Assembly (NCBI GenBank): GCA_041288095.1
Contig: JBGGMJ010000197.1
Location: 1-64,000 of the forward strand
From: Myxococcota bacterium
Lineage (GTDB): Bacteria; Myxococcota; XYA12-FULL-58-9; JALHOP01
Direction of reading: 5' to 3'
Length of the DNA stretch: 64,000 bases
The notes under the pieces were generated by a model. That model did not search any database and was not told where the DNA came from. It saw only the letters and a program-made list of their open reading frames with translations. Shown piece by piece: positions 942 through 59,316 of the stretch. The first letter of the stretch is position 1; every line of letters begins with the position of its first letter. A program made the translations under genes and the position numbers.

Positions 942-968
942 TTATCGGCGGTGACACCGTGTCGTTTC
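942..968 (-). promoter_or_regulatory. sigma28/FliA-like promoter motif GAAAC-N14-GCCGATAA
   Basis: The reverse strand reads GAAAC GACACGGTGTCACC GCCGATAA. The -10 box is identical to the sigma28 consensus. Confidence 0.7.
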
Positions 969-1027
969 GGAAATGAGTGACACGTTGGCACTTTTTGCTA
1001 CCCCGGCGGGCGCGAGTGCCACGACAG

Positions 1028-1057
1028 CAAACACCAGCCGGCGAGTGAGTCCGATAA
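1028..1057 (+). promoter_or_regulatory. sigma28-like promoter motif with a weak -35: CAAAC-N17-TCCGATAA
   Basis: TCCGATAAAG at 1050-1059; the -10 box ends 9 nt before ATG 1067. The -35 spacing is longer than in the other copies. Confidence 0.5.
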
Positions 1058-1066
1058 AGCGCCAAC

Positions 1067-2008
1067 ATGAGCGCATGGAATCCGCGAACGACCTCCCGAC
1101 CTTCGAACGACCACTCGCTGGCGGTGGCTGAGCGACCAGTTGCGCTACCGCTGCTGCAAGGGACCTCTTTGGGTGAGGTCGTGCCGGTGAGAGATGGACC
1201 GATCTCCGCGGCCGTCCACGAACGGGCGTGCGAGCTTGCGACCACCGCCGCGCGAGACGCCGACAAGCTCAAATGGACGGTTGGTCCCGCGGCGAAGGCT
1301 CGAGGCTTCGACGCTTGGCTGCTGGAGGACGAGCCGGGTCCAGCGGTGGTCAAGGTCGGCAGCGCAATCGTCGGCGCCATCGCCTGCCTCGCCGGTAGTT
1401 GCTTGTACGGCTTGGACGGCGTCGTCGCCGGCGCCCATCTTGCCACCGGCGGAGCGGCCGCCCTGGCGTTCGCCGCTTGGACGAGCTCCGTCAAATGGCG
1501 GGTCGAGCGTGCCCTGACCAAGGCACGCAGCCAACGCGTCGAGTCGGCTCAGATCGACAAGCTCCTCCGGCCCTTCCAAGGCGCCACACCCGAAACCCGC
1601 GCCATCGCCGCGAAGGCAATGCGGGAGGAGCTCGCGGCCATAAACACGACATTGTCCGCTAAAGCAGTCGAGCTGCGCGACAGCGTCCTTGTCGTGCAGG
1701 GAGCGCTCCCGGATATCCAGCGTGCCGCCCGACTGGCGGAAGCCCTGGCTACATTGTTACGCAAAGACGCGGGCTACCACCGGAGCAGTCACGCGATCAC
1801 CACGATCTCCGCCTGCCTCGCCGAGGCGACACCAGCCGAGCGGCGCGAGATGGCGACCGCGATCGAGCGTTGCGCATTCGACGGCGAACAGCCGCGCTTC
1901 GCGGTGAACGACGCCCTCGACCTCGAACGCCGCCTGTATAGCGCGATGCGCGCCGCCGAGAACGGCGAGGCCCCCGCGGTGGATGGATCGCGCGCTATCG
2001 CCGGCTAA
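1067..2008 (+). CDS. Orphan protein with a disordered N-terminus, a Gly/Ala-rich hydrophobic hairpin and a helical C-terminus
   Basis: 313-aa ORF. Hydrophobic segment [39 protein letters not shown]. The stop codon overlaps the convergent secA stop. Confidence 0.7.
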
Positions 2009-4785
2009 GCTCGCCGCCGGTCGCGCTTCTTCTTGTTGGCCGAGACGTCGCGCTTCACCTTCTCGACGACCGACGGACCATCGTCCTCGGGCTCTCCGTT
2101 GTTCGGCTTCGGAGGCTCACCGGGCTTCGCCGTGCTCTGACCCGCGATGGGCTGCGTCGAGGTCGTCCGTGACTGCATGAGCTGCCGCTGGCGGTCGCGC
2201 TGCCGCTCGAGCCGTGCCTGGTACTCATCCTCGGTCTCCTGCGTGATGACGACGCGGAAGGTCTTCTGCAGGACGTCGCCCGTGATGGCGGACATCATGT
2301 TGACGAAGAGGTTGTAGCCCTCTTTCTTGTACTCCTGCTTCGGATCCTTCTGAGCGTAGCCGCGCAGCGAGATGCCTTCGCGCAGGTGGTCCATGTCGCG
2401 CAGGTGCTCTTTCCAGAGCTGATCGATGGTCTGCAGATAGATGATGCGCGAGACGCCGTAATAGCTATCCGAGCCGTACGTCGTTTCCTTCTCGAGCAGC
2501 ACCTTCTCGATGCCGGCGAAGACCGTCTCTTCGATGACCTCGCGGGTCACGTCCTTGAGATCGAGGAGCTTCATCTCGACGTTGAACTGCTCTTTGAGCA
2601 TCAGCTCGAGCTCGTCGAGCTTCCACTGGTCGATGTTGGTCTTCTCGGGGCAGGTCCGCGCCACGATGTTGATGATCACGTCCTCGATGGCGTCGAGGAC
2701 CAGCTCCTTGGTCGCCGCCGCGTCAGCGGACAACACGCGCCGGCGCAGCTTGTAGACCGCGATGCGCTGATCGTTCATGACGTCGTCGTATTCGAGCAGA
2801 TGCTTGCGAATGTCGAAGTTGTGGCCTTCGACGCGACGCTGCGCATTCTCGATGCTGCGGTTCACCAGCGGGTGCTGGATGACCTCGCCCTCTTTCATGC
2901 CGAGGGTTTCCATGATGGCGGTGATGCGCTCGCCGCCAAAGATGCGCATGAGGTCGTCTTCGAGCGACAGATAGAAACGCGAGGTACCCGGGTCGCCTTG
3001 GCGGCCCGAGCGGCCACGGAGCTGGTTGTCGATACGCCGTGACTCGTGGCGCTCGCTACCGATGACGCACAAGCCGCCGGCGGTACGCACTTCGTTCTTC
3101 TCGGCGTCACATTGCGCTTGGTACTTGGCGATGAGGGCCGGGAGCTGCGCCTCGGTCTCCGGCGTCGCTTCTGCCTTCGCCAAGAACTCGGGGTTACCGC
3201 CGAGCAAGATGTCGGTACCGCGGCCCGCCATGTTGGTGGCGATGGTGACGGCGCCCTTGCGCCCGGCCTGCGCGATGATCTCCGCTTCTTGGCGGTGGTA
3301 CTTCGCGTTCAAGACGTTGTGCGGGATCTTGAGCTTCTTGAGCTCGCGCGACAGCACTTCGCTCTTCTCGACGCTGGTGGTGCCGACGAGAATGGGCTGC
3401 CCCTTGGCGGTGCGCTCCTGGATGTCCTTCGAGATGGCGCCGAACTTCTCGCGCTCGCTCTTGAAGATGAGATCGTCGGCGTCGTCGCGAACCATGGCGC
3501 GGTTGGTCGGGACCGCCACGACCTCGAGGTCGTAGATCTTCGCGAATTCTTCCGCCTCGGTCATGGCCGTACCGGTCATGCCGCCGAGCTTCATGAACAT
3601 GCGGAAGTAGTTCTGGTAGGTGATGGTCGCGAGCGTCTGGTTCTCGTTCTCGATCTTGACGCCCTCTTTGGCCTCGACCGCCTGGTGCAAGCCGTCCGAC
3701 CAGCGGCGCCCTTCGAGGACGCGACCGGTGAACTCGTCGATGATCTTCACCTTGCCCTCTTCGACCATGTAGTCGACGTCGCGGCGGTACAGGGTGTGCG
3801 CGCGCAAACCTTGGTTCACGTGGTGCAGGATCTCGATGTTGTCGGGCGCATAGAGGTTGTCGACGCCGAGCTTCTTCTCGGCCGTCTCGATGCCGCGCTC
3901 CGTTAAAACGACAGTGCGCGACTTCTCGTCGATGGTGTAGTCGACCTCGCGCTTGAGCGCCGGGATGGCGGCGTTGATGCGGCCGTATTTGTCCGTCGAC
4001 TCTTCCGAGGGGCCGCTGATGATGAGCGGCGTGCGCGCTTCGTCGATCAGGATGGAGTCGACTTCGTCGACGATCGAGAAGTGATGACCGCGTTGCACGT
4101 AGTCGCTCAAGAAGAGCTTCATGTTGTCGCGCAGGTAGTCGAAACCGAACTCGCTGTTGGTACCGTAGGTAATGGGCAGCGCGTACATCGCCTTGCGCTG
4201 GGAGTCGGAGAGCCCGTGCACGATGAGGCCGGTCTCGAGGCCGAGGAAGCGATAGAGCTGACCCATCCACTGCGAGTCACGGGTCGCGAGGTATTCGTTC
4301 ACCGTGACCACGTGCACACCGCGGCCCGCGATAGCGTTCAAGTACACCGGCAGCGTGGCGACCAGCGTCTTGCCTTCGCCGGTCTTCATCTCCGCGATCT
4401 TGCCTTCGTGCAGCACCATGCCGCCCATCAGCTGGACGTCGAAGTGCCGCATGTTGAGCACGCGCCTGCCCGCCTCGCGACAGACCGCGAAGGCTTCAGG
4501 CAAGATGGTCTCGAGCGCCGCGTCGACGAGCTTACGCTCGGCCTTCACCTCGGCCTTGGGCCCCTCGGTGATGATCTTCGTCGGGTCGCCGCCGAGCTGC
4601 TTGAAGGCCTGCTCGTATTTGGCGCGCAGCTCGCCGGTCTTGGCGCGGAGCTGGTCATCCGGCAGCGCCCGCATCTTGGCGTCGAGGGTGCTGATGCTCT
4701 GCACCTTGGCCGTAAGGCGCGTGACTTCACGCTCGTTTTTGGTCGGAATCAGCTTTCCGATGAATCCCTGGCGCCACCACGACAT
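2005..4785 (-). CDS. secA: Preprotein translocase ATPase SecA
   Basis: Motifs [45 protein letters not shown] and [21 protein letters not shown] 4785 has a GGAG RBS. Confidence 0.98.
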
Positions 4786-4817
4786 TGTCTGCTCCAAAAA
4801 CGCGCAAAAGGCGCGCG

Positions 4818-4847
4818 AAGCTACGCGCCTGGCTATCTAATGGTCAA
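4818..4847 (-). promoter_or_regulatory. Possible sigma70 promoter of secA (TTGACC-N18-TAGCTT), overlapping a small hairpin at 4809-4830
   Basis: Hexamers read directly on the reverse strand. Confidence 0.35.
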
Positions 4848-4881
4848 GGCGTCCCGGCTATGCCGGCGACGCGATCACCCG

Positions 4882-6807
4882 CTAGCGGGCCACCTTCTCG
4901 TGTAGCTCTTCGACGGTGTCGACCAGGGCCCCGTAGAGCTCGGCCTGGCGGATACGCTCGGCGACCGGGTCCTTGCTCTTCACTTTGTACTTGGCCTGGG
5001 TCGCGTGCATTTTCTTGTAGAGCACGAGCGCGCCTTCCATGCGCGACAAGAGCGACGGGTCGGCGGTGACCGCCTTCTCGATGGCGTCGATGTGCTCGTT
5101 GAGCTCGGCGAAGGTGGGCTTGCCGCCGCTGCTCTTCGGCGTGGCGCGCACGACCTCTTCGGCGCGACTGGGCGGCGGAGTGTCACTCGTGGTCACAGCC
5201 GGCCTGGCTGTCGGCCGATCGGCGCTCACGGTCGTGGGCGGACGATCGCTGGTCGTGGTTGTCGGCCGCGCGCCCTGCGGGTCGGCCTTTGGCTGCGCGT
5301 CCGCTTTAGCAGTCTCGCCGCCGCTATCGGCACCAGCGCTCTTGGCGCGCGCTTCGGCCTGCGCTTGGAGCTTTGCGGCTTCGGCCTGAGCGGCGGCCAC
5401 GGCCTCCTGGGCTTTCTGAGCCTGGGCGGCGGCGTTCACGGATGCGACGCTGGCGCGCACGAGGCCGATGGCGCTCCAAGCAGTGCTCGCGACGAGCAGC
5501 ACGCCTAAGACCATGATGATCTTGGGCACGAGGTCCATCACCCTGAAGTGCCCGTGCCAGGCATACATGATGTAGAGCGAGACCAGTCCGGCGCCCGTGG
5601 TCAGCACCAACGGCACGATTTGGATGAACGGCCCAACGACGGGCACACCCGCCAAGAGAGCGAACAGAACTCCAACGCCCGCGACGATCTGAGTGAGCGC
5701 GACGCCGGTATAGAGCGCCACGAACATGTTCGTGCGGCCACGCGGATTCGACTCTCCTTTGAGCAGGCGAATCCACCAATCGACCAGCGGGTGCCAGATC
5801 CAGCCGGCGACGACGCAACCGATGACCACGCCGATGGCGCCGGTGATGATCGGGCGGATGATCGCGCCGACCCCGAAGGTGTGCGTCACAAGCGACAAGA
5901 TGATGGTGGCGATCAGCGTGATAATGGCGCCGAGGATGAGCGGCGGGGCCGCCCAGACGACGAGGTCCATCTTGTCGAGCGGCGGGAATGGTTGCTCGGC
6001 GATGAGTTGCTGCGTGGCGCGCACCGGGCCAAAGACGAGCTTGGGCACCGCGCCCATGTAGTAGGCGAGGGCCTGCCCGAAGCCGCCTTGAACGTCCCTG
6101 CTGTTGAACCCCGCGCCGAGACTCGAGACCTCACGGTCGTCCTCGGAGAGCTCGTCGTTCATCGAAATTTCGCGGCGCCGAGGGCCGCTCTCGCGGAGCG
6201 AACCCGAGTCGCGGCGGCCCTCGAGCGAGCCCGAGTCGCGTCGCTCGTCCGAGTCCGAGTCACGCCCCTCAAGAGTGTTGGAGTCGCGGCGGCCCTTGGC
6301 GCGCCGGGGCGATTCGCCTTCGGCATCCTGGGCCACCGGCGGGTGGCGGTGAATCGAGCTGCCTTCGGCCAGCTGCTCCGCGTCGAGGGGGTCCTCTGGA
6401 TCCTCCTGCATCACGGTGCGCGCTTGCTGCATGGCGCGTGGGGCTTCGCCCTTGGGCGCGGCCTTGCCGGCATTCTTCTGCTCGTAGAGCGCGGTCGCCT
6501 CGCCCGCGCTGACGCCATTGGTCGCGACGGAAACGCGGAACTTGTACTTGTGCAGCGCGATGACGATGCCGTCTTTGAGCTCGAGCTCGCCGCGCAGGCG
6601 TGTGCCTTCGACGAAGGTGCCGTTCGAGGAGTTGGTGTCTTCGATGAAGTAGCGGCCGGAGCGCGCGAAAATGCGCGCGTGCGCACCGGAAACACCGGGG
6701 TCCGGAATGGTGATGCTGGAGCGGCGCGAATCGCGGCCGAGGGTTGCGCCGGCCGCGTCGATGGTGTGCGACTCTTCGGTTTGCAGGTCCTCTAGGCGGA
6801 GCTCCAT
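4882..6807 (-). CDS. FHA domain / Yip1-like multi-pass membrane protein
   Basis: N-terminal FHA (LGR...VSGAHARI...DTNSSNGTFV), a charged linker, about 5 TM helices after LVFGPVRATQQL, and an Ala/Pro/Thr-rich C-terminal region. Confidence 0.8.
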   Translation of the reverse strand: MELRLEDLQTEESHTIDAAGATLGRDSRRSSITIPDPGVSGAHARIFARSGRYFIEDTNSSNGTFVEGTRLRGELELKDGIVIALHKYKFRVSVATNGVSAGEATALYEQKNAGKAAPKGEAPRAMQQARTVMQEDPEDPLDAEQLAEGSSIHRHPPVAQDAEGESPRRAKGRRDSNTLEGRDSDSDERRDSGSLEGRRDSGSLRESGPRRREISMNDELSEDDREVSSLGAGFNSRDVQGGFGQALAYYMGAVPKLVFGPVRATQQLIAEQPFPPLDKMDLVVWAAPPLILGAIITLIATIILSLVTHTFGVGAIIRPIITGAIGVVIGCVVAGWIWHPLVDWWIRLLKGESNPRGRTNMFVALYTGVALTQIVAGVGVLFALLAGVPVVGPFIQIVPLVLTTGAGLVSLYIMYAWHGHFRVMDLVPKIIMVLGVLLVASTAWSAIGLVRASVASVNAAAQAQKAQEAVAAAQAEAAKLQAQAEARAKSAGADSGGETAKADAQPKADPQGARPTTTTSDRPPTTVSADRPTARPAVTTSDTPPPSRAEEVVRATPKSSGGKPTFAELNEHIDAIEKAVTADPSLLSRMEGALVLYKKMHATQAKYKVKSKDPVAERIRQAELYGALVDTVEELHEKVAR

Positions 6808-6905
6808 CGCCGGGAGGTTAGCCGACCTAAGCCGCTAATAACAAAGAAAACCAGTGCGACGCACTGCGTTAAAAAGAGCTCGGTTTGGCGTAGCGGATCG
6901 GCCGC

Positions 6906-7436
6906 CTAATTTTCCTCGCGCCGTGTACGTGCCGACCGCACGCTCGACCACTGGTCGCCCTCGAAAATATCGTCATCGGTGGCAACGGCTTCGACGGCGC
7001 TCTCGTGCGCGGCGAGGATCGCCTGGTAGGTGTCGCTGTCGAGCTGACCGCTCCGCGGCATGTCGTGCTCGTCTTGGAATTCCGCTATCGCGTTGCGCGT
7101 CGCCGGGCCCCAGACGCCGTCTATGCCGTCGCCCCCACCACCACGGCCACGACCGCTGACGTCGTAGCCCAAGGCGACGAGCGCCACTTGAATATCGTGC
7201 AGGCGCAGACGCGCTTGCTCGAGGTCATTGGGGTTCGCTTCGCTGGCTCGCAGATAGCCACTCGCCGCGGCGCCGATGCTCGTCGCCATCATGGCGACAT
7301 CGGTGAAGCCCGGCGGCTCGTCGTCGATGCGGTCGTCTGGGAGCTCACGTGAGCTAGGCAGCTGGGAGATCACTGGCCCCCCGGAGTCTGATCGGTCGTC
7401 GAGCTTCCCGTCGCGGTCGTTTCGGTGCCGTCCCAT
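6906..7436 (-). CDS. Peptidoglycan-binding (PG_binding_1) domain protein
   Basis: IQVALVALGY...IDGVWGPATRNAIAEFQ...GQLDSDT. GGAGG RBS. Confidence 0.8.
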   Translation of the reverse strand: MGRHRNDRDGKLDDRSDSGGPVISQLPSSRELPDDRIDDEPPGFTDVAMMATSIGAAASGYLRASEANPNDLEQARLRLHDIQVALVALGYDVSGRGRGGGGDGIDGVWGPATRNAIAEFQDEHDMPRSGQLDSDTYQAILAAHESAVEAVATDDDIFEGDQWSSVRSARTRREEN

Positions 7437-7532
7437 GTGCCCCTCCGTATATCAAGGTCGCCATCGAAGACCGGAAGCGCAACCGCCACACGTACTGTAC
7501 CGAGATGTAAAGCCGATGCTATGTCATGCGCT

Positions 7533-8546
7533 ATGCCAGGCTCCGCGAGCGACGATTCTGCCGCGATTCTAGCGCGCGTTACGCGCAGCGGCGAGCCAGA
7601 ATCGCTCCATCGCGGCAGCGTCGTCATCACCAAGGATGACGCGGTGTTGCATGCATGGGGTAACCCCGACACGCCGGTCTTCACACGGTCGGCGGTGAAG
7701 CCCTTCCAGATGTTGCCGTTTCTCGAGCGTGGTCTCGCTGACCGCTATGGCGTATCACCGGCCGAGCTCGCGGTGCTCGTCGCGAGCCATAGCGGCACTC
7801 CCGAGCACGTCGCCATCGTACGCGGCTTGATGAAGAAGCTCGGGGTCGAAGAAGGCGAGCTACGCTGCGGACCGCACGCGCCGTACGACGTGCAGGCGAG
7901 CATCGCCATCGCTCGCGCCGGTGAGAAGCCGAAGCCGGTGCACAACAACTGCTCGGGAAAACACGTCGGCTTCGTGCGCTTGGCGCGCGAGCTGGGCACC
8001 GACGTCGAGCGCTACCTCGACCCCGCGACGCCCGCGCAGCTCGAAGTGAAAGCGGCGGTCAGGACCATGACCGGCGCGGCCGAGGGTGATCTGTTCGTCG
8101 GCATCGACGGCTGCGGTGCGCCCACCTTTCGTATGCCGCTGGTGGCGCTGGCGCGTGGCTTCGGACGACTCGCGACGCCGACCGGCTGTCCGCCCCAGCG
8201 CGTCGCGGCCCTGCGCGCGATGCTCGGGGCGGTGACCGCCTTTCCTCGCGTGTTCTCGGGCGCCGGGCGCTTGGAGGAGGCATTGCTCACCGCCCTCCCC
8301 GGCAGGATTTTCCCCAAGAACGGCGCCGAAGGCATCTACGCTATCGGCCTTGCCGGCACCGGCTTAGGGGTAGCCATCAAGGTGGACGACGGTAACGAGC
8401 GTGGCTACTTCCCGGTGGTCGTGGCGCTTCTGCAGCGCTTGGGCGTCATCTCCGACGTCCCCGAAGTCCTCGAGCGCTTTCGTAGACTACCGATCGTGAA
8501 CACTCAGAAGTTGGTCGTCGGACACGTCGAGAGCGCGCTCTCTTGA
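7533..8546 (+). CDS. L-asparaginase II family protein (class 3, Rhizobium etli type)
   Basis: Motifs RSAVKPFQ, SHSG, NNCSGKH, DGCGAP and KNGAEG. Start placed at ATG 7533 (alternative 7521). Confidence 0.88.
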   Translation: MPGSASDDSAAILARVTRSGEPESLHRGSVVITKDDAVLHAWGNPDTPVFTRSAVKPFQMLPFLERGLADRYGVSPAELAVLVASHSGTPEHVAIVRGLMKKLGVEEGELRCGPHAPYDVQASIAIARAGEKPKPVHNNCSGKHVGFVRLARELGTDVERYLDPATPAQLEVKAAVRTMTGAAEGDLFVGIDGCGAPTFRMPLVALARGFGRLATPTGCPPQRVAALRAMLGAVTAFPRVFSGAGRLEEALLTALPGRIFPKNGAEGIYAIGLAGTGLGVAIKVDDGNERGYFPVVVALLQRLGVISDVPEVLERFRRLPIVNTQKLVVGHVESALS

Positions 8547-8553
8547 GAGACCC

Positions 8554-9378
<825 letters not shown>

Positions 9379-9387
9379 AGCTCTCGC

Positions 9388-10416
9388 TTGTCCCGCCTGG
9401 TGCTGCTTGCTGTCCGTTGCTTCGCGGTGGCGCTGGCCATGCGGGCGCACGCGGCCGAGGCCAGCCTCGCGCTCCCCGAGCCGCTCGTCACCTTGCTGGC
9501 GAGCGGCAAGTGGGACGCGACACCGCGCGGCTTTCGCATCATCACGCTGTCGTTCATCGCGGACGGCTGCGCCGCCGAAGCACGCGCCGGCGCCGCCAAG
9601 CGCGCCGCCGCGACGCGCTGCATCGACGACGCGCTCGAGCTCGCGAAAAAGGACAGGCCCAGCGGGCTCGACGTCGACCGCGCCGACGCCGGGCTCTGGC
9701 TCGCCCACTACGCGCTCATCCTCGGGAGCCGCGATACGGCTGCCGCAAGCTGCGCCGACGCCGGTGAGCATCGCCGCGTCACCGATGCCTTGGCCAAGCG
9801 CTCGCTAGCCGAACCGACGGCGCATGCTCCGTCGTTCGCCGGCAAGCCAGAGCGCTATCCAGCGGATCAAGCCGCGGTGCTCGCGGCCCTCGCCCGCCAC
9901 GACCGCGCCCACGGCACGAGCCTCGCGACCGAGCCTGCCGCCCGCTACGACGCCTATCTCGTCGAGCACACCGACGCCGAGACCGGCCTCCCTTGGTCGC
10001 AGGTCGCCGGCAAGTCGGCTGCTGGCAAGCTCCCGCGCGGCTGCGCCCTGTCGTGGCAGACCCGCTATCTCGCCGAGGTATTGCCCGCACGCGCCGCCCG
10101 CGATTGGCAACTCTACTTGAAGCACTACCTTTTCGACGCCGGTGTGCTCGTCGGCATGCGTGAGTGGCCTCCGGGGCGCGACCGGCCGGCTGACATCGAC
10201 TCGGGGCCAATCGTGCGCGGTGTCGGCACGGCCGCCAGCGCCCTCGCCATTGCCGCCGCCCGCCGCATGGGTGACGACACTCTAGCGTTGCGCCTGGAAG
10301 CCTCCGCTGCGAGTGTCATGGCCCTGGCCGCCGCCGATCCCGCGATCACCGCGAGCAGCCACACCAAGATCGCCGAAGCCATCCGCTATCTCGGACACGT
10401 GGAGAGAAAGGACTAA
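9388..10416 (+). CDS. Exported (alpha/alpha)-barrel protein, linalool dehydratase/isomerase-like domain
   Basis: Signal peptide ending AHA-A. Motifs YPADQ, PRGCALSW and REWPPG...DIDSGP recall LDI-domain proteins (from memory, not searched). Confidence 0.5.
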   Translation: MSRLVLLAVRCFAVALAMRAHAAEASLALPEPLVTLLASGKWDATPRGFRIITLSFIADGCAAEARAGAAKRAAATRCIDDALELAKKDRPSGLDVDRADAGLWLAHYALILGSRDTAAASCADAGEHRRVTDALAKRSLAEPTAHAPSFAGKPERYPADQAAVLAALARHDRAHGTSLATEPAARYDAYLVEHTDAETGLPWSQVAGKSAAGKLPRGCALSWQTRYLAEVLPARAARDWQLYLKHYLFDAGVLVGMREWPPGRDRPADIDSGPIVRGVGTAASALAIAAARRMGDDTLALRLEASAASVMALAAADPAITASSHTKIAEAIRYLGHVERKD

Positions 10417-10421
10417 CCGTC

Positions 10422-11054
10422 ATGTCGAATCACGACGATCAGCTCAAAGGCAGCGAAGCGCGCTTGTGGCGGCTCATCTCCGAGCGCAGCCAACCTGGAT
10501 CGGACCCGCGCGAGATCGACGAGCGCATCTGGGACCTGTTCGGCGACGACTGGTCGATCATGTTCACCGACCTCTCCGGATTTTCGCGCCAGGTCGCGAA
10601 GTTCGGGATCATCCACTTCCTGCAGGTCATCCACGAGCAAAAGGCGCTGCTCTTGCCGATCGTCGCCGACCACGACGGCATCCTCATCAAGATCGAAGCC
10701 GACAGCTTCCTCATCATCTTCAAGCGAGCACGAACCGCCGTGCAGTGCGCCATCGCCATGCAGCACGCCTGTCAGAACTTGAACGCCCGCCGCGCGCCCG
10801 AAGAGCAGGTGCTCCTGTGCGTCGGTATCGGCTCCGGACGCGTCCTGCGCATCGGCGACGTCGACGTCTACGGCGCCGAGGTGAATGCCGCGAGTAAGCT
10901 CGGCGAGGACACCGCCAAAGCGAACGAGATCCTCGTCACACAGAAGGCGCGCGATCAGGTCCAGGATCTACTGGGCGTGACCTTCGAGCCCATCGACGCC
11001 GTGGTGCCCGGCAGCGAGAAGAACTTCAAGGTGCTCTACGAGCACGCTCGCTAG
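10422..11054 (+). CDS. Stand-alone class III adenylate/guanylate cyclase domain protein
   Basis: MFTDLSGFS, KIEADS, GIGSG, DVYGAEVNAASKL. Confidence 0.88.
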   Translation: MSNHDDQLKGSEARLWRLISERSQPGSDPREIDERIWDLFGDDWSIMFTDLSGFSRQVAKFGIIHFLQVIHEQKALLLPIVADHDGILIKIEADSFLIIFKRARTAVQCAIAMQHACQNLNARRAPEEQVLLCVGIGSGRVLRIGDVDVYGAEVNAASKLGEDTAKANEILVTQKARDQVQDLLGVTFEPIDAVVPGSEKNFKVLYEHAR

Positions 11055-11702
11055 TCACTTTTTTTCTGGTTTGCTGTCGACGTTGGCGTGCAACACGCTC
11101 ACGCCCGCCGGAATCGTGAAGGCGAACTTGGCGTCGGCGACCTTGGCGCCGAGATCGAGGTCCTTGAAGACGTATTCGGTGCGGTTGCCGAGGGGGTCGA
11201 CGACGATCGAGCGACGCACCTTGCCGCTGCCGCCGTCGGTGTCGAGCTGGATCCGATCCACCGCGGCGATCGGCTCCTTCGGCGTGAGGACGATCGACAC
11301 CGCGTCGCCGGCCGCGATGCATTTACCGTCGCACGCCTTGGGCTCGAAGCTCTTCACCAGGTCGCCCTGCCCCCACAAGAAGCGCATCGCGCTCGCGACG
11401 GGGCTGTCCTGGAACTTGTCGAAGACGGTGACCTGCGAGTTCTCTGGCTCGTAAAAGTACGCCTGCTTGCCGTCGAAGACGAAGTCCTTGCGGCTAGGAG
11501 TGCGATAGCTCCAGCGCACCTTGCCGTCCTTCTTGGCCCAAAGCTCGCCGCTCTCGATCTTCTTCGCGCCGCGCATCTTGTCGACGTAGGTCTGCTCGAA
11601 CTTCGCGGTGACGTCGCCGCCGTTCTTGTAGGTGGCCTGCACCTTCGCGAGCGTATCGCTGGGCGCCACGGCGGCGAGGACAAGAGAAACGACGAGCATC
11701 AT
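11055..11702 (-). CDS. lolA: Outer-membrane lipoprotein carrier LolA
   Basis: Signal peptide, then AKFEQTY, SGELWAKKDGKVRWSY, FVFDGK and DPLGNRT. Lies directly downstream of ftsK, a conserved gene pair. Confidence 0.85.
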   Translation of the reverse strand: MMLVVSLVLAAVAPSDTLAKVQATYKNGGDVTAKFEQTYVDKMRGAKKIESGELWAKKDGKVRWSYRTPSRKDFVFDGKQAYFYEPENSQVTVFDKFQDSPVASAMRFLWGQGDLVKSFEPKACDGKCIAAGDAVSIVLTPKEPIAAVDRIQLDTDGGSGKVRRSIVVDPLGNRTEYVFKDLDLGAKVADAKFAFTIPAGVSVLHANVDSKPEKK

Positions 11703-11778
11703 GCTGTTAGACCGATCCGAGGCGCGGGTTATTCGCTGCAGCCCGATAGTCCCGAAGACAGCGCCCGGCAAGGCTCCA

Positions 11779-14565
<2,787 letters not shown>

Positions 14566-14630
14566 GGTCGAACTGCCCCTCTGTCACTAGCCGACTCACC
14601 CGCGCAGGCGCGTCGTCCAGGTTCGATTCG

Positions 14631-14659
14631 ACCTTAGGGCCGGGATCTTGCGCCGTCAA
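14631..14659 (-). promoter_or_regulatory. Putative sigma70 promoter of ftsK (TTGACG-N17-TAAGGT)
   Basis: Hexamers with a 17-nt spacer, 66 nt upstream of the start. Confidence 0.55.
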
Positions 14660-14753
14660 AAAACTAGCTGCGGGGCGGTCCTGGCAGACAAGTGGATGTT
14701 GACAGCATCGCCGATCGGTCACTAAGAAGCCGAACCGAACTCACGAATGCGTG

Positions 14754-14768
14754 TGGCACGCCTTTTGT
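14754..14768 (+). promoter_or_regulatory. Possible sigma54 -24/-12 promoter (TGGCACG-N4-TTGT) of the DUF507 gene
   Basis: Matches TGGCACG-N4-TTGC except for the last base; 23 nt before ATG 14792. Confidence 0.4.
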
Positions 14769-14791
14769 ACGCGTGCCTGGTTGGGACGATC

Positions 14792-15307
14792 ATGAAACTG
14801 TACCGCAAGGTCATTCCGAAGATTGCCAAAGACATCGTCCGCTCGTTGCTCGCCAACCGCGCCATCGAAGTCGAAGACGGCCACCGCGACGAAGCAGAGC
14901 TCGACCTCGCGGCCGTCCTCGTCGAGTACATGAACGCCGTCGACCAGGTGAGCACCGATGCCAGCGAGGCCATGCAGCGCCACGGCTTCTCACACACCAT
15001 GCTCGGCAAGGTGAAGAAGAGCATCGCGGACCAGCGCAAGGTCGTCATCGGTGAAGACGCCGAAGAGCACCTCGTCAACCGTGTCATCCACTCGCTCTTC
15101 AACTCGAAGCACATCGAGGAAGTGTTCATGGAAGATCACGAGCTGCGTAAGCTCGTGACCACCGCCATGCGCAAGTACGTCGGCGTCGACGAGGAGCTCG
15201 ATCGCGAGGTCCGCGGCCGCCTGAAGAATCTGCGCGAGGGCACGGCCGAGTGGGAAGTCGAATACGGCCGCCTCATCGATCAGATGCGCAGCGCCAAGCA
15301 GGCCTGA
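14792..15307 (+). CDS. DUF507 family protein
   Basis: MKLYRKVIPKIA...EELDREVRGRLKNLREGTAEWEVEY resembles deltaproteobacterial DUF507 proteins. Confidence 0.75.
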   Translation: MKLYRKVIPKIAKDIVRSLLANRAIEVEDGHRDEAELDLAAVLVEYMNAVDQVSTDASEAMQRHGFSHTMLGKVKKSIADQRKVVIGEDAEEHLVNRVIHSLFNSKHIEEVFMEDHELRKLVTTAMRKYVGVDEELDREVRGRLKNLREGTAEWEVEYGRLIDQMRSAKQA

Positions 15308-15308
15308 T

Positions 15309-15863
15309 CTAGGTCAGCTCGAGTGCGTTAGCCTTGCTGCCGTAGTACTCGAACCGCGCCGTCACGTGGAGTCGTCCGTCCACGTTCGTGATGCGGAGCT
15401 CGCCCGGTCCGTCACCGCGGTCTTCGCCAAAGCGGACAACGAGACCGTTGCCTTCGCGGAACAGCTCGTTCGCCAAGCTATAGAGGCGATTGCTCTTGCG
15501 GTCGTAGACCAGCTCTTCCGGGAGGACCGTGCCGCGGACGAGCAGTCGCGCAAGCTTTTCGCCCTCACCTGGCGCGAGGGCACCGGCGAAGGAGCGGGCC
15601 GCCTCGGGCAGCACGCCCATGGCGAGGCGCGCCCGTAGGACCACCCGGTCGGTCGGCACGCCGTCGTGGAAGGCAAAGGACACGTCGGGCTGGCCGGCGC
15701 GCGTGAGTCGGTGCACCGGGCCGTCGCTACGATCGGTCGTCCCCGTCTTGGTGATGAGGATGCCGTCGCGCGCAAGCTCTGCCACGATGAGGCCGTGGCG
15801 GTCCTTGGGGGCGGCTTGGTCGACGACTTGGCCCGCGGACGGACCTTGCACGGATAGACTCAT
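15309..15863 (-). CDS. Orphan protein (MSLSVQGPSAG...)
   Basis: 184-aa ORF filling the gap between neighbours. ATG lies 6 nt downstream of the promoter -10 box. Confidence 0.65.
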   Translation of the reverse strand: MSLSVQGPSAGQVVDQAAPKDRHGLIVAELARDGILITKTGTTDRSDGPVHRLTRAGQPDVSFAFHDGVPTDRVVLRARLAMGVLPEAARSFAGALAPGEGEKLARLLVRGTVLPEELVYDRKSNRLYSLANELFREGNGLVVRFGEDRGDGPGELRITNVDGRLHVTARFEYYGSKANALELT

Positions 15864-15869
15864 GCCCAC

Positions 15870-15896
15870 TTATCGGGGCGACTCCTTCGCGGTTCC
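15870..15896 (-). promoter_or_regulatory. sigma28-like promoter motif GGAAC-N14-CCCGATAA
   Basis: The reverse strand reads GGAAC CGCGAAGGAGTCGC CCCGATAA. Confidence 0.65.
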
Positions 15897-15973
15897 TCGA
15901 ACCGCCCTGCCGCCATGTCGGCCCATCAGCGTGGGTGTGCGGCAAATCATTCTCGGGAGCACAGGAGTGGCGC

Positions 15974-16000
15974 GGAACGGCCGGGTGGCTCTGGCGATAA
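15974..16000 (+). promoter_or_regulatory. sigma28-like promoter motif GGAAC-N14-GGCGATAA
   Basis: GGAAC GGCCGGGTGGCTCT GGCGATAA, ending 28 nt before ATG 16029. Confidence 0.65.
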
Positions 16001-16028
16001 CGCAGCACCCCTATCCCGTGAGAGATTC

Positions 16029-17486
16029 ATGAACGTCGGCTCAATCCGTCCGCCGCGGCAGACTATTCCCACATCTTCCGTGGCACCGACTATCGCCGCC
16101 GCTCCCCGCGACACCGTTGAACCGCGCTACAACTGGAACAATCGCATCGCCATCAAGCCGCGCGCCTTCTACGAGCCCTCGAGCGAGGACGAGGTTTGCG
16201 CCATCGTGAAGCACGAGCGCTCTGTCCGCTGCGGCGGAGGGCTGCATTCGTTCAACGGTGCCATGGCGCCCGACCCCACCGGTGCCTTCATCGACATGCG
16301 GCGCATGAACCGCATCGACAAACCGGTCAAACACGCGGACGGCAGCGTGACCGTGACCGCTCAAGCGGGCTGCACTCTCAAGCAGATCGGCACCTACCTG
16401 CGGGGCTTGGGCCTCGCGCTCGAGAACCTACCGACCAGCGCGGACATCACCTTGGGCGGGGCGATCGCCAACGGCGTGCACGGCTCGGGTCTCACCTCTC
16501 CCGCCGTGCTCGCCGAGCAGGTCGTCGGCATGACGACCGTCAACAGCGCGGGCGAAAAGGTCACGGTCGCTGAAGCGGACTTGCCGCTGTACCGCATCAA
16601 CATGGGCCTCTTGGGCGTCACCACCAGCTTCACCCTGCGCGTCGTGCCCGACTTCGATCTGGTGATCGCCGATGACGCCGTCACCGGCGAAGACGAGGTC
16701 ATCGCACGCCTCGAGCCTTCGCGCTTGCGGCGCGAGGTGAGCCAGTTCCAGAGCGCAACCTATCTCATCGACTTCAACCTCGAGGATCCCGCCGCCACCA
16801 GGCTCAGGCGCAACCTGCTCGTCAAAGTCACCGACGAGAATCGCTCCGAGATCGAAGCGCGCAAGCTGCCGCGCAAAGAGGACTACGATCTTCCCCCCGA
16901 AACGGTGCGCCGAGCCTATCAGCAGGCCTTCGAGGCCGCGGCCGCGGGCGGCACGAGCGCGCGCGGCAAGGAGCTGTCCCGCAAGATCCGTGGCGGTTTC
17001 GCGCAACCCAAGGAGCCGCGCATCGGCCGCTCGTCGCTCATGTACCAGATCTGGCTCGACCTGCCGGCGCACGATGTCAGCTATGGCGTACCGTTCGAGA
17101 AGGCCCAAGAAGCCTTCAAGCGCGTCATGACGGAGCTGCGCTCGCTCGGCTACGAGGCGATGGTGCCGTTGTCGATGCGCTTCCTATCCGGCACCGACAA
17201 GACGCTGATGGGCATGAACAGCGGCCGCGACGTGGTCAGCTTCGAGCTACTCACCTCGACGGCGACCGACGGCAAGGGAGGCGTGCTGCGACCTGACGTG
17301 CTGGCCGCGCAAGTGGCCTTCGAGCGCGTCATGGCCGAGATGGGCGCGCGGCCGCACTGGGGTAAAGAGTACGATGTGAGCCCGCGCGACCGCTTCGCCC
17401 CCGAGGTCTGGCAGCGCTTCGCCGACGAGGCGAAGAGAGTCGGCGCCAAGTTCAAGAACGCCTGGTCGGCGGCCTTTACGCCGTAG
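16029..17486 (+). CDS. FAD-linked oxidase of the arabinono-/gulono-lactone oxidase (ALO/GULO) family, with an N-terminal extension
   Basis: YNW...P...EPSSEDEV, GGGLHSF (flavinylation His), TLGGAIANGVHGS, GLLGV and C-terminal RPHWGK. Confidence 0.85.
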   Translation: MNVGSIRPPRQTIPTSSVAPTIAAAPRDTVEPRYNWNNRIAIKPRAFYEPSSEDEVCAIVKHERSVRCGGGLHSFNGAMAPDPTGAFIDMRRMNRIDKPVKHADGSVTVTAQAGCTLKQIGTYLRGLGLALENLPTSADITLGGAIANGVHGSGLTSPAVLAEQVVGMTTVNSAGEKVTVAEADLPLYRINMGLLGVTTSFTLRVVPDFDLVIADDAVTGEDEVIARLEPSRLRREVSQFQSATYLIDFNLEDPAATRLRRNLLVKVTDENRSEIEARKLPRKEDYDLPPETVRRAYQQAFEAAAAGGTSARGKELSRKIRGGFAQPKEPRIGRSSLMYQIWLDLPAHDVSYGVPFEKAQEAFKRVMTELRSLGYEAMVPLSMRFLSGTDKTLMGMNSGRDVVSFELLTSTATDGKGGVLRPDVLAAQVAFERVMAEMGARPHWGKEYDVSPRDRFAPEVWQRFADEAKRVGAKFKNAWSAAFTP

Positions 17487-18302: not shown

Positions 18303-18338
18303 TTTATTACCCCGACTTACCCCCACGAGCCACGCGCC

Positions 18339-21799: not shown

Positions 21800-21948
21800 G
21801 TCTTCAAGGCTAACGGTCCCGACTGCGATCGTCAATTGCAACGGTCGCTATAGGCGACGGTCTTCCCTTGCCTTTTCGAGATCGAATCTGATTACGTCCG
21901 GCCCGCCGCCGCGAATACTCGCGCTGCACACGTGTTGGAGGGTCGAAA

Positions 21949-22647: not shown

Positions 22648-22671
22648 CCGACAAGCTACGCTAAAACGAAC

Positions 22672-22695
22672 AGAGGCCGCCTTCGAGCGGCCTCT
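22672..22695. terminator. Probable bidirectional intrinsic terminator
   Basis: Perfect 9-bp stem AGAGGCCGC-CTTCGA-GCGGCCTCT between convergent genes, with T-rich flanks on both strands. Confidence 0.75.
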
Positions 22696-22696
22696 T

Positions 22697-27323: not shown

Positions 27324-27349
27324 GGAACACTCGGCGGATTTGCCGATAC
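27324..27349 (+). promoter_or_regulatory. sigma28-like promoter motif GGAAC-N13-GCCGATAC
   Basis: GGAAC ACTCGGCGGATTT GCCGATAC, ending 8 nt before ATG 27358. Confidence 0.6.
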
Positions 27350-27357: not shown

Positions 27358-27813
27358 ATGTTCGACATCGGCCCACCGCCCCCTCCGTCACAGCCCAAGC
27401 CGGCTGCTCCCCGCGAGCTGGCGGTGTCGACGCTCTTGCCCCGGCAGGCCGTCGTGAAGGTCGCCGAGCCGCCCAAGGACGTCGTTCAAGTCCTGCTCCA
27501 ACCGCCGCCCGAGCCGCCGGTCCCCGGCACCTTCTTGGGGCCGCTCACCGTGCGCGTCGACAACGCCCTGAAGCCGGTGCTGCGCCTCGGACCGCCTCTG
27601 ATCTTTCTGGCCGGCACCGCCGCCGGCGCGCTGGCCTGCGTGGCCGCGGGGAGCATCGCGGCCCTCGCCGGCTACGATCCACAGCCTTTCTTCGCCGCCA
27701 CGGAATACGCAATGCCGGCCGGCACCATTGGCTTGCCCGCTGCCCTGATCTTCATCGGCTTTCGCGCCGAGGCGGTTCGTAGGCGCTATCGCGACGCTGG
27801 ACGCATCATTTAG
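27358..27813 (+). CDS. Orphan protein with a Pro-rich N-terminus and a bilobed hydrophobic domain
   Basis: 151 aa, starting MFDIGPPPPPSQ. Two hydrophobic lobes followed by a basic tail. Confidence 0.7.
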   Translation: MFDIGPPPPPSQPKPAAPRELAVSTLLPRQAVVKVAEPPKDVVQVLLQPPPEPPVPGTFLGPLTVRVDNALKPVLRLGPPLIFLAGTAAGALACVAAGSIAALAGYDPQPFFAATEYAMPAGTIGLPAALIFIGFRAEAVRRRYRDAGRII

Positions 27814-41637: not shown

Positions 41638-42753
41638 ATGGATAACAACGACATCATCCTCGGGGGTGACGAACAGCGCACTCTCGAAACCTTTGGCTTC
41701 GACCGCACGTCGTTCCAAGAGCTTGCCGCAGATTTGGCCGCAGGCAAGTTCCCCGCGGAGCGCAACCGCATCCAGGGACGCGTCGAAAAACCGCAGGCAG
41801 GAGACATAGTTAAGTGGCCCGGCGAAGGTACGGCCGAGGCCCGGGAAGCCGAGCGTATCGGCCGCGCCGCCATCGCCGGCGGTGAGGTCGCGGTCGCCAT
41901 CTTGAACGGCGGCATGGCGACACGGTTCGGCGGCATGGTGAAATGCCTGGTCAAGGTGGTCGAGGAGCACACCTTCCTCGATCTCAAGCTCAAGAACATC
42001 GTCGACCTCGACGCGCCGGTCCCCGTCTTCCTCATGAACTCGTTTGCGACCGACGGCGACACCCGTGCCCACTTGAACGCGCGCGACTACTGCGGTGTCG
42101 CGTCGGAGCGCCTGCACGTCGTGGCGCAGCACGTCTCCTTGCGCCTGACGCCGGACGGCAAGCTCTATCGCGACGCAAACGGCCGGCTCTCGCTCTTCGC
42201 TCCGGGCCACGGCGACATCTTCGACGTGCTGGCGAACGCTTCAGCCTTCCGGCGCTTCATCGCGGGTGGCGGCAAGTACGTATTGGTGAGCAATGTCGAC
42301 AACCTCGCGGCGACGCTCACACCCAAGGTCGTCGGCTTGCACATCCTGGGGAAGAAGCCCCTCACCGTCGAGGTCGCGCCCAAGGAGCCGGGCGACCAAG
42401 GCGGTGCGCCGGCGCGCGTCGACGGCAAGCTGCAGATCGTCGAAGGGTTCCGCTTCCCGGCGAGCTTCAACCAGGACGACATTCCGGTTTTCAACTGCAA
42501 CACCTTCATCATCAACGCCACGCACGTTCGCGCCGACTATCCGCTGACCTGGTTCCGCGCCGACAAGAAGGTCGATGGCGCCTCGGTGGTGCAGTTCGAG
42601 CGACTCATGGGCGAGGCGACGGCGTTCGCGGACGCGCAATATGTCGAGGTGCCGCGCGCCGGCCACGAAGGACGCTTCTTGCCGGTGAAAACGCCCGATG
42701 ACCTGACGAGCGTACGCGACCTCGTTCGCGATAGACTGTTTCGCAAGGAGTAA
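41638..42753 (+). CDS. UTP-sugar-1-phosphate uridylyltransferase of the eukaryote-like UDPGP family
   Basis: LNGGMATRFG, FLMNSF, PGHGD, SNVDNL, FNCN, QFE and RFLPVK. Alternative start at 41608. Confidence 0.85.
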   Translation: MDNNDIILGGDEQRTLETFGFDRTSFQELAADLAAGKFPAERNRIQGRVEKPQAGDIVKWPGEGTAEAREAERIGRAAIAGGEVAVAILNGGMATRFGGMVKCLVKVVEEHTFLDLKLKNIVDLDAPVPVFLMNSFATDGDTRAHLNARDYCGVASERLHVVAQHVSLRLTPDGKLYRDANGRLSLFAPGHGDIFDVLANASAFRRFIAGGGKYVLVSNVDNLAATLTPKVVGLHILGKKPLTVEVAPKEPGDQGGAPARVDGKLQIVEGFRFPASFNQDDIPVFNCNTFIINATHVRADYPLTWFRADKKVDGASVVQFERLMGEATAFADAQYVEVPRAGHEGRFLPVKTPDDLTSVRDLVRDRLFRKE

Positions 42754-44348: not shown

Positions 44349-45950
44349 TCATGACTTGTCCGCTTTAGCGAGCTCGTCTTCGATATCGATGCCGTATTCC
44401 TCGAGCTTGCGGTGGATGGTCGAGCGCGAGATGCCGAGCGCCGATGCCGCATCCGTCTTGTTGCCCCGGTGTTTCACCAGCTCTGCGACGATGGTGCCGC
44501 GCTCGACGTCAGCCAGCGTACGGCCGTCGCCGCTGCCGCCGCCGGTTCGGGCCTTCGACGTGCTCGGCGGGAAGACGACGTCGGTGGTCGTGAGAACATC
44601 AGCGGTGCGCATGAGAACGGCGCGCTGCACGACGTTGCGTAGCTCGCGGACGTTCCCCGGCCAGCGGTGGCCGTTGAGCAGGCGCATCGCGGCGTCGTCG
44701 AAGCGCACACGCTCGCCCTCCGGCACGAGCTGCTCGAGGAAGAAGGCTACGAGCTCGGGAATGTCCGCGGCGCGGTCGCGTAAGGGCGGCAGCGGCAAGG
44801 CGAGCACATGCAAACGGTGGAAGAGGTCTTCGCGAAAGCGATTGGCCGCGACCTCTTCCTCGAGACGTCGATTGGTGGCGGCGATGACGCGAACGTCGAC
44901 CTTGACGTCTTCGTTGCCGCCGACGCGGTGGACCTCGCCAGTCTCGAGGACGCGCAAGAGCTGTGGCTGCAGGTCGGTGGGCAGCTCACCGATCTCGTCG
45001 AGGAACAACGTGCCGCCATGGGCTTGTTCGAAGGCACCGGCCTTGCGCGACACCGCGCCGGTGAACGCGCCTTTCTCGTGACCGAAGAGCTCGGACTCGA
45101 TGAGCGTTCGCGAAAGCGCTCCGCAGTTGATGGCGACGAACGGTTTGCCGGAGCGTTTGCCGTGCGACGCGATGAGGCGGGCCACGACCTCTTTCCCGGT
45201 CCCGGTTTCGCCGTGCAGCAGCACCGGCGCATCGTTCGCCGCCATGCGCTCCGCCAGGGTCCGCACGCGCAGCGCCTTGTCAGAACCGCCGACATATCCG
45301 GATGCTGGAAGCTCGGTGTCCGCTTCAGCGGTCGCTGGCAGCACCTCGATGTCGATACGGCCAATGCGCACGGTCGCTGGCGGAACGACCTCGGCGGCTT
45401 GCACCTTTTGCTCGCCGATGAACACACCGTTGCGGCTGCCGACGTCGTGGACCATGCAGCGACCGTTTTCCAGCACGACGCGCGCATGGAAGCTCGACAC
45501 ATAGGGGTCGGCGAGGACCACGTCGTTGCTCACGTCGGAGCCGACGGTGACACCGCGCTTGCCGATGTCGTGCGTGCGCTCACCGACCTTGAGCACGAAG
45601 GCAGCGCCCGCCTTGGTCTCCCGGTGCAGGGTACGCGTGCCTTCTCCAGATGGGTTCCCGCCGCGATAGCGGACGGTCGCGGTGACCGGACCGAGCTGGA
45701 TCACGTCACCGTCGGCTAGGCGGGCCTCGCTGCTGACGATCTCGCCGGCGACCCGCGTGCCGTCTTTCGACTCGTCCACCAGGACGAGCAGCGGGCCCGA
45801 ACGGCGCAAGGTGCACTGGAACGGCGCAACCGCCGCGTCCGGCACCGAGAGATCACAGTCGGGGTTACGGCCGATGCTGAACAGAGGCGTATCGATGCTG
45901 CGCCACAATGTGTCGCGGCCGCCTACCGTGAGCATCAAGCCGACCTGCAT
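44349..45950 (-). CDS. sigma54-dependent enhancer-binding protein with two FHA domains
   Basis: [38 protein letters not shown], a Fis-type HTH, and two N-terminal FHA domains. Confidence 0.93.
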
Positions 45951-45977
45951 CGGCGTGTCTTAGCGCGAAACCCGGCG

Positions 45978-46316
45978 TCAGCGAAATGCGCTTGCGCGCT
46001 TGCGCCGCGCCCGAAAGGCACGGAGGCGCCGCCATTGGTGGATGCCCCAGAGGATGGCGCTGCCGACCGGCCGCCGCAGGACCGGCACGTCTTGAGCGAT
46101 GAGCATGAGCCCGAGCGGCAGCATGTAGAGACCAAGCACCGGCAGGAACCAGAGGAAACCCGCGACGATGAAGAGCAGAGCCAGCGGGATCCGGAGCTTG
46201 CGGCTCTTGGGGTCGCGCAGCCAGCGCAGCATGCGGGCCAGGCGCTCCGGCACCTCTTCTTCGAGCCGGTCGAAGGCCTGGTCCAAGGTCTGTTTTCCGT
46301 CGTCGCCTTCAGCCAT
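45978..46316 (-). CDS. Small membrane protein
   Basis: Hydrophobic hairpin LLFIVAGFLWFLPVLGLYMLPLGLMLIAQDVP; AGGT RBS-like site. Confidence 0.75.
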   Translation of the reverse strand: MAEGDDGKQTLDQAFDRLEEEVPERLARMLRWLRDPKSRKLRIPLALLFIVAGFLWFLPVLGLYMLPLGLMLIAQDVPVLRRPVGSAILWGIHQWRRLRAFRARRKRASAFR

Positions 46317-46380
46317 CGACCTACGATGCGCACCCCAGACAGCGCCGCCACGCCACCATGACGTTTTGTCATGTTTTCAC

Positions 46381-46408
46381 GAAACGAAAGGCGGGGGTCG
46401 GCCGATAA
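46381..46408 (+). promoter_or_regulatory. sigma28-like promoter motif GAAAC-N15-GCCGATAA
   Basis: Perfect GCCGATAA at 46401-46408, 50 nt before TTG 46459. Confidence 0.7.
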
Positions 46409-59313: not shown

Positions 59314-59316
59314 GCG

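Follow-up and report, generated by a model that had tools for sequence, protein, structure and literature searches.

The 64,000-nt window analysed here (contig JBGGMJ010000197.1 of a Myxococcota bacterium; G000:C197:1-64000 in our numbering) carries several copies of a two-box promoter motif that recurs throughout the source genome (G000; 5.85 Mb, 66% GC, 90% complete). We propose that the motif marks a sigma28-type regulon, that it is read by a FliA-like sigma factor encoded within a type III secretion cluster of the needleless kind (T3SS*), and that the regulon provides for joint production of the export machine and its cargo. We put the probability of this reading as a whole at about 0.8.

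A position weight matrix (PWM) seeded with five of the window sites converges genome-wide on GCAAC-N16/17-CGATA[A/C], and the consensus for the genome as a whole is [G/A]CAAC-N16/17-CGATA[A/C]. The string GCAAC-N-CGATA[AC] occurs in G000 111 times with a 16-nt spacer and 49 times with a 17-nt spacer, as against 1–5 times at each other spacing from 10 to 23 nt; the second -35 form, ACAAC, contributes 20 (N16) and 10 (N17) copies. The refined matrix gives 301 intergenic matches, compared with 0–8 in 20 shuffles, and 324 downstream genes. Regulon first genes make up ~6% of the 4,967 genes that we predicted with a dicodon model, whose starts are approximate. Orientation is strict: tandem intergenic gaps hold 140 sense and 8 antisense matches, and a single match falls in 149 convergent gaps. 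Furthermore, in-frame ATG codons peak 7–9 nt past the -10 box (43 of 325 sites, with 0–2 per position at 0–6 nt and 1–4 at 12–22 nt). The -10 box of Pseudomonas sigma28 promoters ends at -8 according to the accessible text of PMC12784957, and the ATG peak is therefore where leaderless starts from a sigma28 promoter would be expected.

The -10 sequence (GC)CGATAA and the 16-nt gap fit the sigma28 promoter class, as does a start ~7 nt downstream, judged from the leaderless ATGs; the TAAA(G) -35 box of that class is missing and [G/A]CAAC stands in its place. String counts reveal no excess of TAAA-type promoters in G000. From these sequence patterns it appears virtually certain that we are dealing with promoters, which serve a sigma28-type regulon comprising ~300 transcription units. 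A preliminary description of the window had recognized a sigma28-like motif, and the -10 box and geometry that it assigned are retained, but its -35 consensus, G[GA]AAC, accounts for 32 of the 309 training sites, a minority, and has been dropped. It had also proposed a matrix scan of the genome, and the large intergenic excess over shuffles bears out a genome-wide regulon. Back-to-back pairs, which are prominent in the window, are a minority elsewhere (17 pairs among 346 non-genic sites).

Two FliA-like sigma genes are found in G000, on contigs C92 and C127, both scoring below the TIGR02479 cut-off. The genes on which the argument turns are:
G000:C92:35188-36072 (-), FliA-like sigma factor, within the T3SS* cluster
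G000:C92:37386-37943, equivalent to L009:17387-17944 (-), gene Y, with a highly conserved C-terminal helix, followed in the cluster by a TPR gene and one resembling SctI
G000:C127:21744-22571, second FliA-like sigma factor, followed by a FlgM-like gene (pair 21744-22853; L001, L013), outside any flagellar cluster

A FliA-family sigma factor with altered -35 specificity had been postulated from the window alone, and the C92 gene, with its altered -35 helix and its location inside a type III export cluster, answers to that prediction. Its best matches in the Protein Data Bank (PDB) are FliA and WhiG (E 1e-33 to 1e-39), with SigA and RpoS at 1e-13 or weaker. A quick, unfinished tree (rows L164 and L165 excluded) places it in its own clade among the FliA-like rows and apart from RpoD and RpoH, and it fits a group 3 sigma factor with FliA and WhiG as nearest characterized relatives. 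The arginine that reads the extended -10 box in Pseudomonas (R97) corresponds to R149 of the C92 factor and is invariant in 31 sequences; S224 of Pseudomonas is also retained. The -35 specificity residue Q228, however, is replaced by R275, with K270 and W272 nearby, all three invariant in the 31 sequences (the offset between Pseudomonas chain and paper numbering was deduced, and eight named residues agree with it). The region 4.2 helix reads LSKSW[T/A]SRLH instead of V[ST]ESRVSQLH, and the canonical helix with its -35-reading glutamine is absent. It is highly probable that the C92 factor reads the motif, a direct recognition that we infer from the residue pattern and from the co-occurrence described below.

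The genes surrounding the C92 sigma gene encode SctJ, a FliG-like protein, SctL, SctN, SctO, SctP, SctQ, FliO and SctR/S/T. With sctV, which lies on C31 and has a strong motif site ~380 nt upstream, ahead of a short open reading frame (ORF), the T3SS* core export genes SctJ, L, N, O, P, Q, R, S, T and V are all present in G000. Related loci keep the order Y, TPR, W, sigma, X (SctI-like), sctJ, and in G000 an efflux cassette parts the sigma gene from X. An RpoH-like sigma gene near sctV (C31:7743-8564) was considered as the reader and set aside; it is not linked, and an RpoH-type protein would expect a different -10 box. The G000 cluster is broken at C92:6713-33560 by insertions absent from most relatives, namely an RND efflux cassette, a K+ transporter, a GNAT gene and large orphans, which include DUF4781 and HD-domain proteins with cargo-like N-termini.

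The distribution of the motif across genomes follows that of the sigma gene. Among 61 genomes, an excess over the wrong-spacing control is seen in 32 of 39 that bear the sigma gene and in 3 of 22 first scored as lacking it. The motif precedes gene Y, and hence the sigma factor's own operon, in 17 of 23 testable loci (1 of 23 for the wrong-spacing control), as opposed to 0 of 6 testable T3SS loci without a sigma gene. In seven genomes without a motif excess, Y, X and sctJ of the T3SS locus lie next to one another and the sigma gene is missing (for one of these, G072, the motif count comes from the phylum-wide tally); Y-like genes are present also at such loci. A second conserved site lies directly after the sigma gene, ahead of X-sctJ, in 16 of 34 loci scanned with the first matrix, and G000 has ACAAC-N16-CGATAA at both conserved places. 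The phylum-wide tally finds the motif in 80 of 85 genomes of family f17 (G138 included), mostly with 10–20 sites each, and in 3 of 23 of family f21. To judge from these genome sequences the motif is phylum-wide in Myxococcota, and it is the T3SS* operons that recur as targets throughout it. A pattern back-translated from region 4.2, tried on 151 genomes, was too degenerate for scoring the presence of the sigma gene.

The window sites and the genes behind them are as follows (PWM cut-off for promoter sites, 16.5):
942..968 (-), promoter GAAAC-N16-CGATAA, PWM score 22.8; at the matching place in G001 both boxes are kept and the spacer differs
461..898 (-), 145-aa orphan without a Pfam family, first gene behind the 942..968 site
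18..461 (-), 147-aa orphan, translationally coupled downstream of the preceding gene (overlap at 461)
1031..1057 (+), promoter ACACC-N16-CGATAA, score 17.1; the orthologous promoter in G002 is GCACC-N16-CGATAA
1067..2008 (+), 313-aa orphan with an S/T/P-rich N-terminus; ATG 9 nt past the -10 box, a leaderless position
15870..15896 (-), promoter GGAAC-N16-CGATAA, score 17.9
15309..15863 (-), 184-aa orphan; ATG 6 nt past the -10 box; no counterpart found at the locus in G001–G003
15974..16000 (+), promoter GGAAC-N16-CGATAA, score 18.6; same boxes and another spacer in G002 and G003
16029..17486 (+), FAD-linked oxidase (FAD_binding_4 and ALO) with an extra S/T/P-rich N-terminal leader
27324..27349 (+), GGAAC-N15-CGATAC, a weak candidate promoter with a score of 12.4 and an unusual spacer
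27358..27813 (+), 151-aa orphan with a proline-rich N-terminus; ATG 8 nt past the -10 box
46381..46408 (+), promoter GAAAC-N17-CGATAA, score 25.2
46483..49596 (+), 1037-aa protein without a Pfam match

All six sites of the preliminary description are present at the positions and on the strands it gave, intergenic and aimed into a downstream ORF, and its two divergent pairs, 968(-)/1031(+) and 15896(-)/15974(+), are indeed back-to-back. Its composite pattern occurs five times in the window, compared with a mean of 0.11 (maximum 2) in 100 dinucleotide shuffles. Five of the six sites are strong. At the second site the -35 box is better placed at ACACC from 1031 (score 17.1) than at the CAAAC once assigned at 1028. 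The site at 27324 has an ATG at the leaderless position (27358), although it scores below the cut-off and its 15-nt spacer occurs in 1 of 309 training sites. The boxes are conserved while spacers diverge at the matching places in G001–G003 for sites 968, 1031 and 15974. The overlap at 461 suggests that genes 461..898 and 18..461 probably share one transcript. Insertion of accessory genes between core genes, another feature of the preliminary description, is evident at 15309-17486, a segment missing between the corresponding flanking genes in G001; the sigma70 boxes it had reported at housekeeping genes were not recovered in a sigma70 scan of window positions 1-20000, which gave no match. The orthologue of gene 1067-2008 in G002 (contig C9; L172, L175) is a tandem duplicate with an identical promoter on each copy. 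The window also holds a motif copy scoring 17.1 within a UDPGP-like coding sequence (41762-41789, +), 969 nt ahead of the next gene, either by chance or as an internal promoter, and a complete-looking type II secretion operon (49608-63447, -; secretin, E, F, G, pseudopilins, K, L-like and M) with no motif upstream.

What do the promoters drive? A Pfam scan covered 230 of the 324 targets: 134 of the 135 that lie in 40 site-rich windows, plus 96 of the other 190, selected for a length of at least 200 aa. In the site-rich windows 102 of 134 targets have no Pfam family, compared with 58 of 130 random operon-leading neighbours (p 2e-7), so that the enrichment of orphans anticipated in the preliminary description is borne out. 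Its picture of a genome-wide, non-flagellar set of uncharacterized accessory genes holds in these respects but is too narrow, since structural operons of the T3SS*, numerous hydrolases and a handful of core-like genes are also among the targets. By hand count, 21 peptidases and 40 hydrolases are present among 66 annotated targets, versus 2 and 6 among 72 controls, although the length filter in the second scanned set may favour such enzymes. The regulon also takes in two ClpX-like AAA+ paralogues with long N-terminal extensions (G000:C149:28751 and C22:68985), and a lone Flp/Tad-pilin-like gene, recognized by eye at G000:C23:7871-8122 (-), has the promoter as well, which may connect the regulon with a Kil/Tad pilus.

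Type III substrates typically have an unstructured, S/T/P-rich N-terminus and no Sec signal. On a hydropathy proxy for Sec signals, 6% of the 324 targets have a hydrophobic N-terminus compared with 21% of 2,343 other operon-leading genes, and target N-termini are rich in S/T/P/Q. The difference is sharper among hydrolases: a signal-like N-terminus is found in 1 of 40 regulon members and in 17 of 36 paralogues outside the regulon, with one further regulon member, lipoprotein-like, just below the hydropathy mark. In four families (GH3, S41, M1 and M20), signal peptides mark the paralogues and a leader marks the regulon copy. For Pfam-annotated proteins in general the N-terminal bias is 4.61 versus 1.36 (p 7e-5). 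The resemblance to type III substrates is statistical, for the set and not protein by protein. In the f17 genome G087 a plausible ORF follows 12 of the 14 exact sites; these ORFs include Y and, by eye, a second Y-like N-terminus, and the motif there also precedes a peptidoglycan amidase with a leader and no signal peptide. We put the odds at about even that many of the regulon targets are T3SS* cargo, and the motif may list the unknown cargo of the type III machine.

The gene order Z, Y, TPR, W, (sigma), SctI-like, SctJ is one that we take to resemble yscE-F-G-H-I-J, which would place Y in the yscF position. No sequence or fold match to Y was found in the PDB (the model has a predicted local distance difference test score, pLDDT, of 51). 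HrpA_pilin is detected weakly in 1 of 24 family members (E 0.003), and an Atlas neighbour cluster at 0.90, in which 11% of members carry T3SS_needle_F, provides another weak lead. A further regulon gene, G000:C210:35166-35663 (+), has a C-terminal motif in common with Y (E 4e-4 against the Y of G087), and G005 has several Y paralogues. W (159 aa) is directly upstream of the C92 sigma gene and has a type III-like N-terminus. A FlgM-like gene adjoins the C127 sigma gene, and no FlgM is found beside the C92 gene. Support for a W–sigma complex is weak, at 0.35 versus 0.00 for the best control, with at least 46% of contacts agreeing between runs and a partner pLDDT of at least 55; of 157 solved pairs 116 attain this mark, as do 2 of 215 mismatched ones, but those attaining it at or below 0.60 are only 18 solved pairs and both mismatches. 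The nearest named cluster to W in the Atlas search, a lead only, is YopR at 0.77, and the position of W together with this lead also fits YscH/YopR. Tentatively, then, Myxococcota might possess a sigma28-derived master switch of the T3SS* whose promoter is a catalogue of substrates, with Y, its most conserved target, as a divergent needle or filament subunit and W as a secreted, FlgM-like anti-sigma factor.

The mechanism that we envisage has regions 2.4/3.0 of the C92 factor still reading the sigma28 -10 box CGATAA, and the rebuilt region 4.2 helix reading [G/A]CAAC in place of TAAAG at the same 16–17-nt spacing. The factor would activate its own operon and the T3SS* basal-body operon, forming a positive loop, and at the same time hundreds of scattered, lineage-specific genes. 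New genes would enter the regulon by acquiring both boxes, and in many hydrolases and orphans the Sec signal would be replaced by an unstructured S/T/P/Q-rich leader. Given this replacement, the most likely purpose would be to produce the export machine together with its cargo, a kit for prey lysis or digestion. Myxococcus xanthus needs the needleless T3SS* to lyse prey, and the effectors of the system are hypothetical, as stated in the accessible text of PMC12075869, PMC12428579 and PMC10849154; a hydrolase-rich set without Sec signals would fit such cargo.

Several observations weigh against this reading. The C92 factor scores 164.4 bits on TIGR02479, short of the 189.6 cut-off. Seven of the 39 sigma-bearing genomes show no significant motif excess, one of them (G058) because its -10 variant is CGAAA, seen at both conserved places, and G031 has a motif count of 9 versus 1 for the control with no sigma gene found. 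Of the motif-rich genomes first scored without a sigma gene, G005 breaks off just short of where the gene is expected, G016 has a contig end within the operon and G023 has a diverged copy. Three genomes first scored as sigma-negative (G033, G042 and G024) carry eroded copies of the gene, and two of them keep the site before Y; the presence/absence table is thus imperfect, and possession of the sigma factor is no guarantee of a large regulon. Moreover, the genomes are related and not independent, and the tallies therefore do not constitute a statistical test. As for cargo, the N-terminal bias among Pfam-less proteins is small (4.38 versus 3.26 in matched controls, p 0.047), which indicates that some of it is shared by orphans at large. 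The Sec-signal measure is a crude hydropathy proxy and the gene starts are our own predictions. Among the targets are some with Sec or lipoprotein signals and some that look core-like (an ilvE-type aminotransferase, a DEAD helicase, a ClpX-like protein), and the T3SS* is described as having no known outer-membrane channel in the accessible text of PMC3459982 and PMC12075869.

The eroded loci (G033:C8:26000-44000, L258; G042:C3, L270; G024:C2, L271) carry sigma genes that are shortened or diverged, lack a match to sctJ in the vicinity, and on sequence grounds are best described as a regulon in decay. Family f12 was accordingly withdrawn as a clean sigma-absent contrast.

Could another sigma factor read these promoters? 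The C127 factor scores 166.4 bits on TIGR02479, keeps the -10 residues and has a neighbour with a FlgM match (PF04316, E 2.4e-7). A flagellar FliA, perhaps unassembled in G000, might also serve, as G001 and G002 have flagellin and G001 has a flagellar locus with a third FliA. Orthologues of the C127 factor (identity at least 40%, tree clade), however, are present in 7 of the 61 genomes, versus a motif excess in 35 of 61, and no motif lies ahead of its gene. Both it and the flagellar FliA have a canonical region 4.2, which predicts recognition of TAAAG, a box not in excess in G000, and the flagellin promoters of G001 and G002 contain GCCGATAC but not GCAAC. Because of these mismatches in distribution and region 4.2, we reject both as readers and consider this explanation improbable. 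More doubtful still is a transcription-factor binding site or mobile repeat. The arrival of new genes together with the motif, as at window positions 15309-17486, would suit this reading, but the two boxes are non-palindromic and strictly oriented, with a fixed 16–17-nt spacer of free sequence that diverges while the boxes stay conserved. The leaderless ATG peak, a geometry identical to that of sigma28 promoters and the absence of any Rfam match in the window also speak for a promoter. The third FliA locus (G001:C2:505000-524900, L260) was not found in G000, through loss or an assembly gap, and the GCCGATAC flagellin promoter of G001 and G002 has no recognizable TAAA -35 box.

A stronger contender accepts the sigma28-type regulon and its assignment to the C92 factor, and departs from our proposal only in the cargo step: the regulon would be a general life-stage programme, for attack phase, starvation or the like, with the T3SS* as one member, most targets cytoplasmic and the disordered leaders a feature of young genes. 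Bdellovibrio offers a precedent, its FliA lying ahead of many non-flagellar attack-phase genes (PMC3627812, accessible text), and the presence of metabolic and lipid-modifying enzymes and some Sec-exported proteins, the weak orphan-matched difference and a more than tenfold variation in regulon size between lineages all count in its favour. Such a programme accounts less well for the strong N-terminal bias of Pfam-annotated proteins, for leaders on regulon copies of GH3, S41, M1 and M20 enzymes whose paralogues have signal peptides, and for T3SS* operons being the phylum-conserved targets. We hold it to be a real possibility, though short of an even chance.

The closest described system is the FliA attack-phase regulon of Bdellovibrio bacteriovorus, where the promoter TTAAG-N16-CCGATA accounts for 92 of 140 attack-phase promoters in the accessible text of Karunker et al. 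2013 (PMC3627812). Both regulons place a sigma28-type promoter before a large, mostly non-flagellar set that includes proteases and uncharacterized genes, and that of Bdellovibrio belongs to a predator. They differ in that Bdellovibrio uses a canonical -35 box and the flagellar FliA, whereas here the -35 box is [G/A]CAAC, the sigma factor forms a separate clade within a non-flagellar T3SS and flagellin is not a target. As far as sequence can tell, the regulon works like that of Bdellovibrio, yet its -35 box, sigma clade and lack of a flagellin target set it apart from the flagellar FliA regulons. The motif does not drive flagellin or late flagellar genes: it is absent upstream of the flagellin genes of G001, G002, G005 and G024, and no flagellin was found in the 90% complete G000.

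The Pseudomonas FliA-FlgM system (PMC12784957, accessible text) has in common with ours the -10 sequence GCCGATAA, a 16-nt gap to the -35 box, the extended -10 arginine and a genetic link to type III export; it differs in Q228, here Arg, and in neighbouring residues (E to K and R to W), and our regulon is far larger and without flagellin in G000. Streptomyces WhiG (PDB 6pfv/6pfj, the top match in the sigma alignment) is likewise a sigma28-family factor turned to non-flagellar control; unlike the C92 factor it has a canonical region 4.2 (VTESRVSQIH) and, in the source text accessible, governs sporulation and not secretion. The cluster shares its core export genes with the Myxococcales T3SS* of Abby and Rocha 2012 (PMC3459982) and Herrou et al. 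2025 (PMC12075869). Those systems are described in the accessible text as having no needle, whereas a conserved gene in the yscF position, with weak needle-family resemblance, is present here; if Y were a needle or filament subunit, the T3SS* would not be truly needleless. The accessible portions of the T3SS* literature (PMC3459982, PMC12075869, PMC10849154 and PMC12428579) make no mention of a sigma factor, promoter or regulon, and that of PMC12288465 mentions neither the present sigma factor nor the motif. Our literature search, which left most subscription papers and supplements outside, found no publication on either.

A promoter motif that tracks the T3SS* sigma factor offers a list of candidate effectors from sequence alone, about a dozen exact-match genes in one f17 genome and ~300 in G000. 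Effectors are hypothesized only, and no regulator is named, in the accessible T3SS* literature. The system also suggests that it can take no more than a handful of region 4.2 changes to keep a second sigma28 regulon apart from its flagellar counterpart within one lineage, which bears on how injectisome-like systems split from flagella. On the tentative master-switch reading, hundreds of scattered hydrolases and orphans would have been recruited through gain of the promoter and exchange of a Sec signal for a type III leader, and W, as a secreted anti-sigma factor, would couple expression to export as FlgM does.

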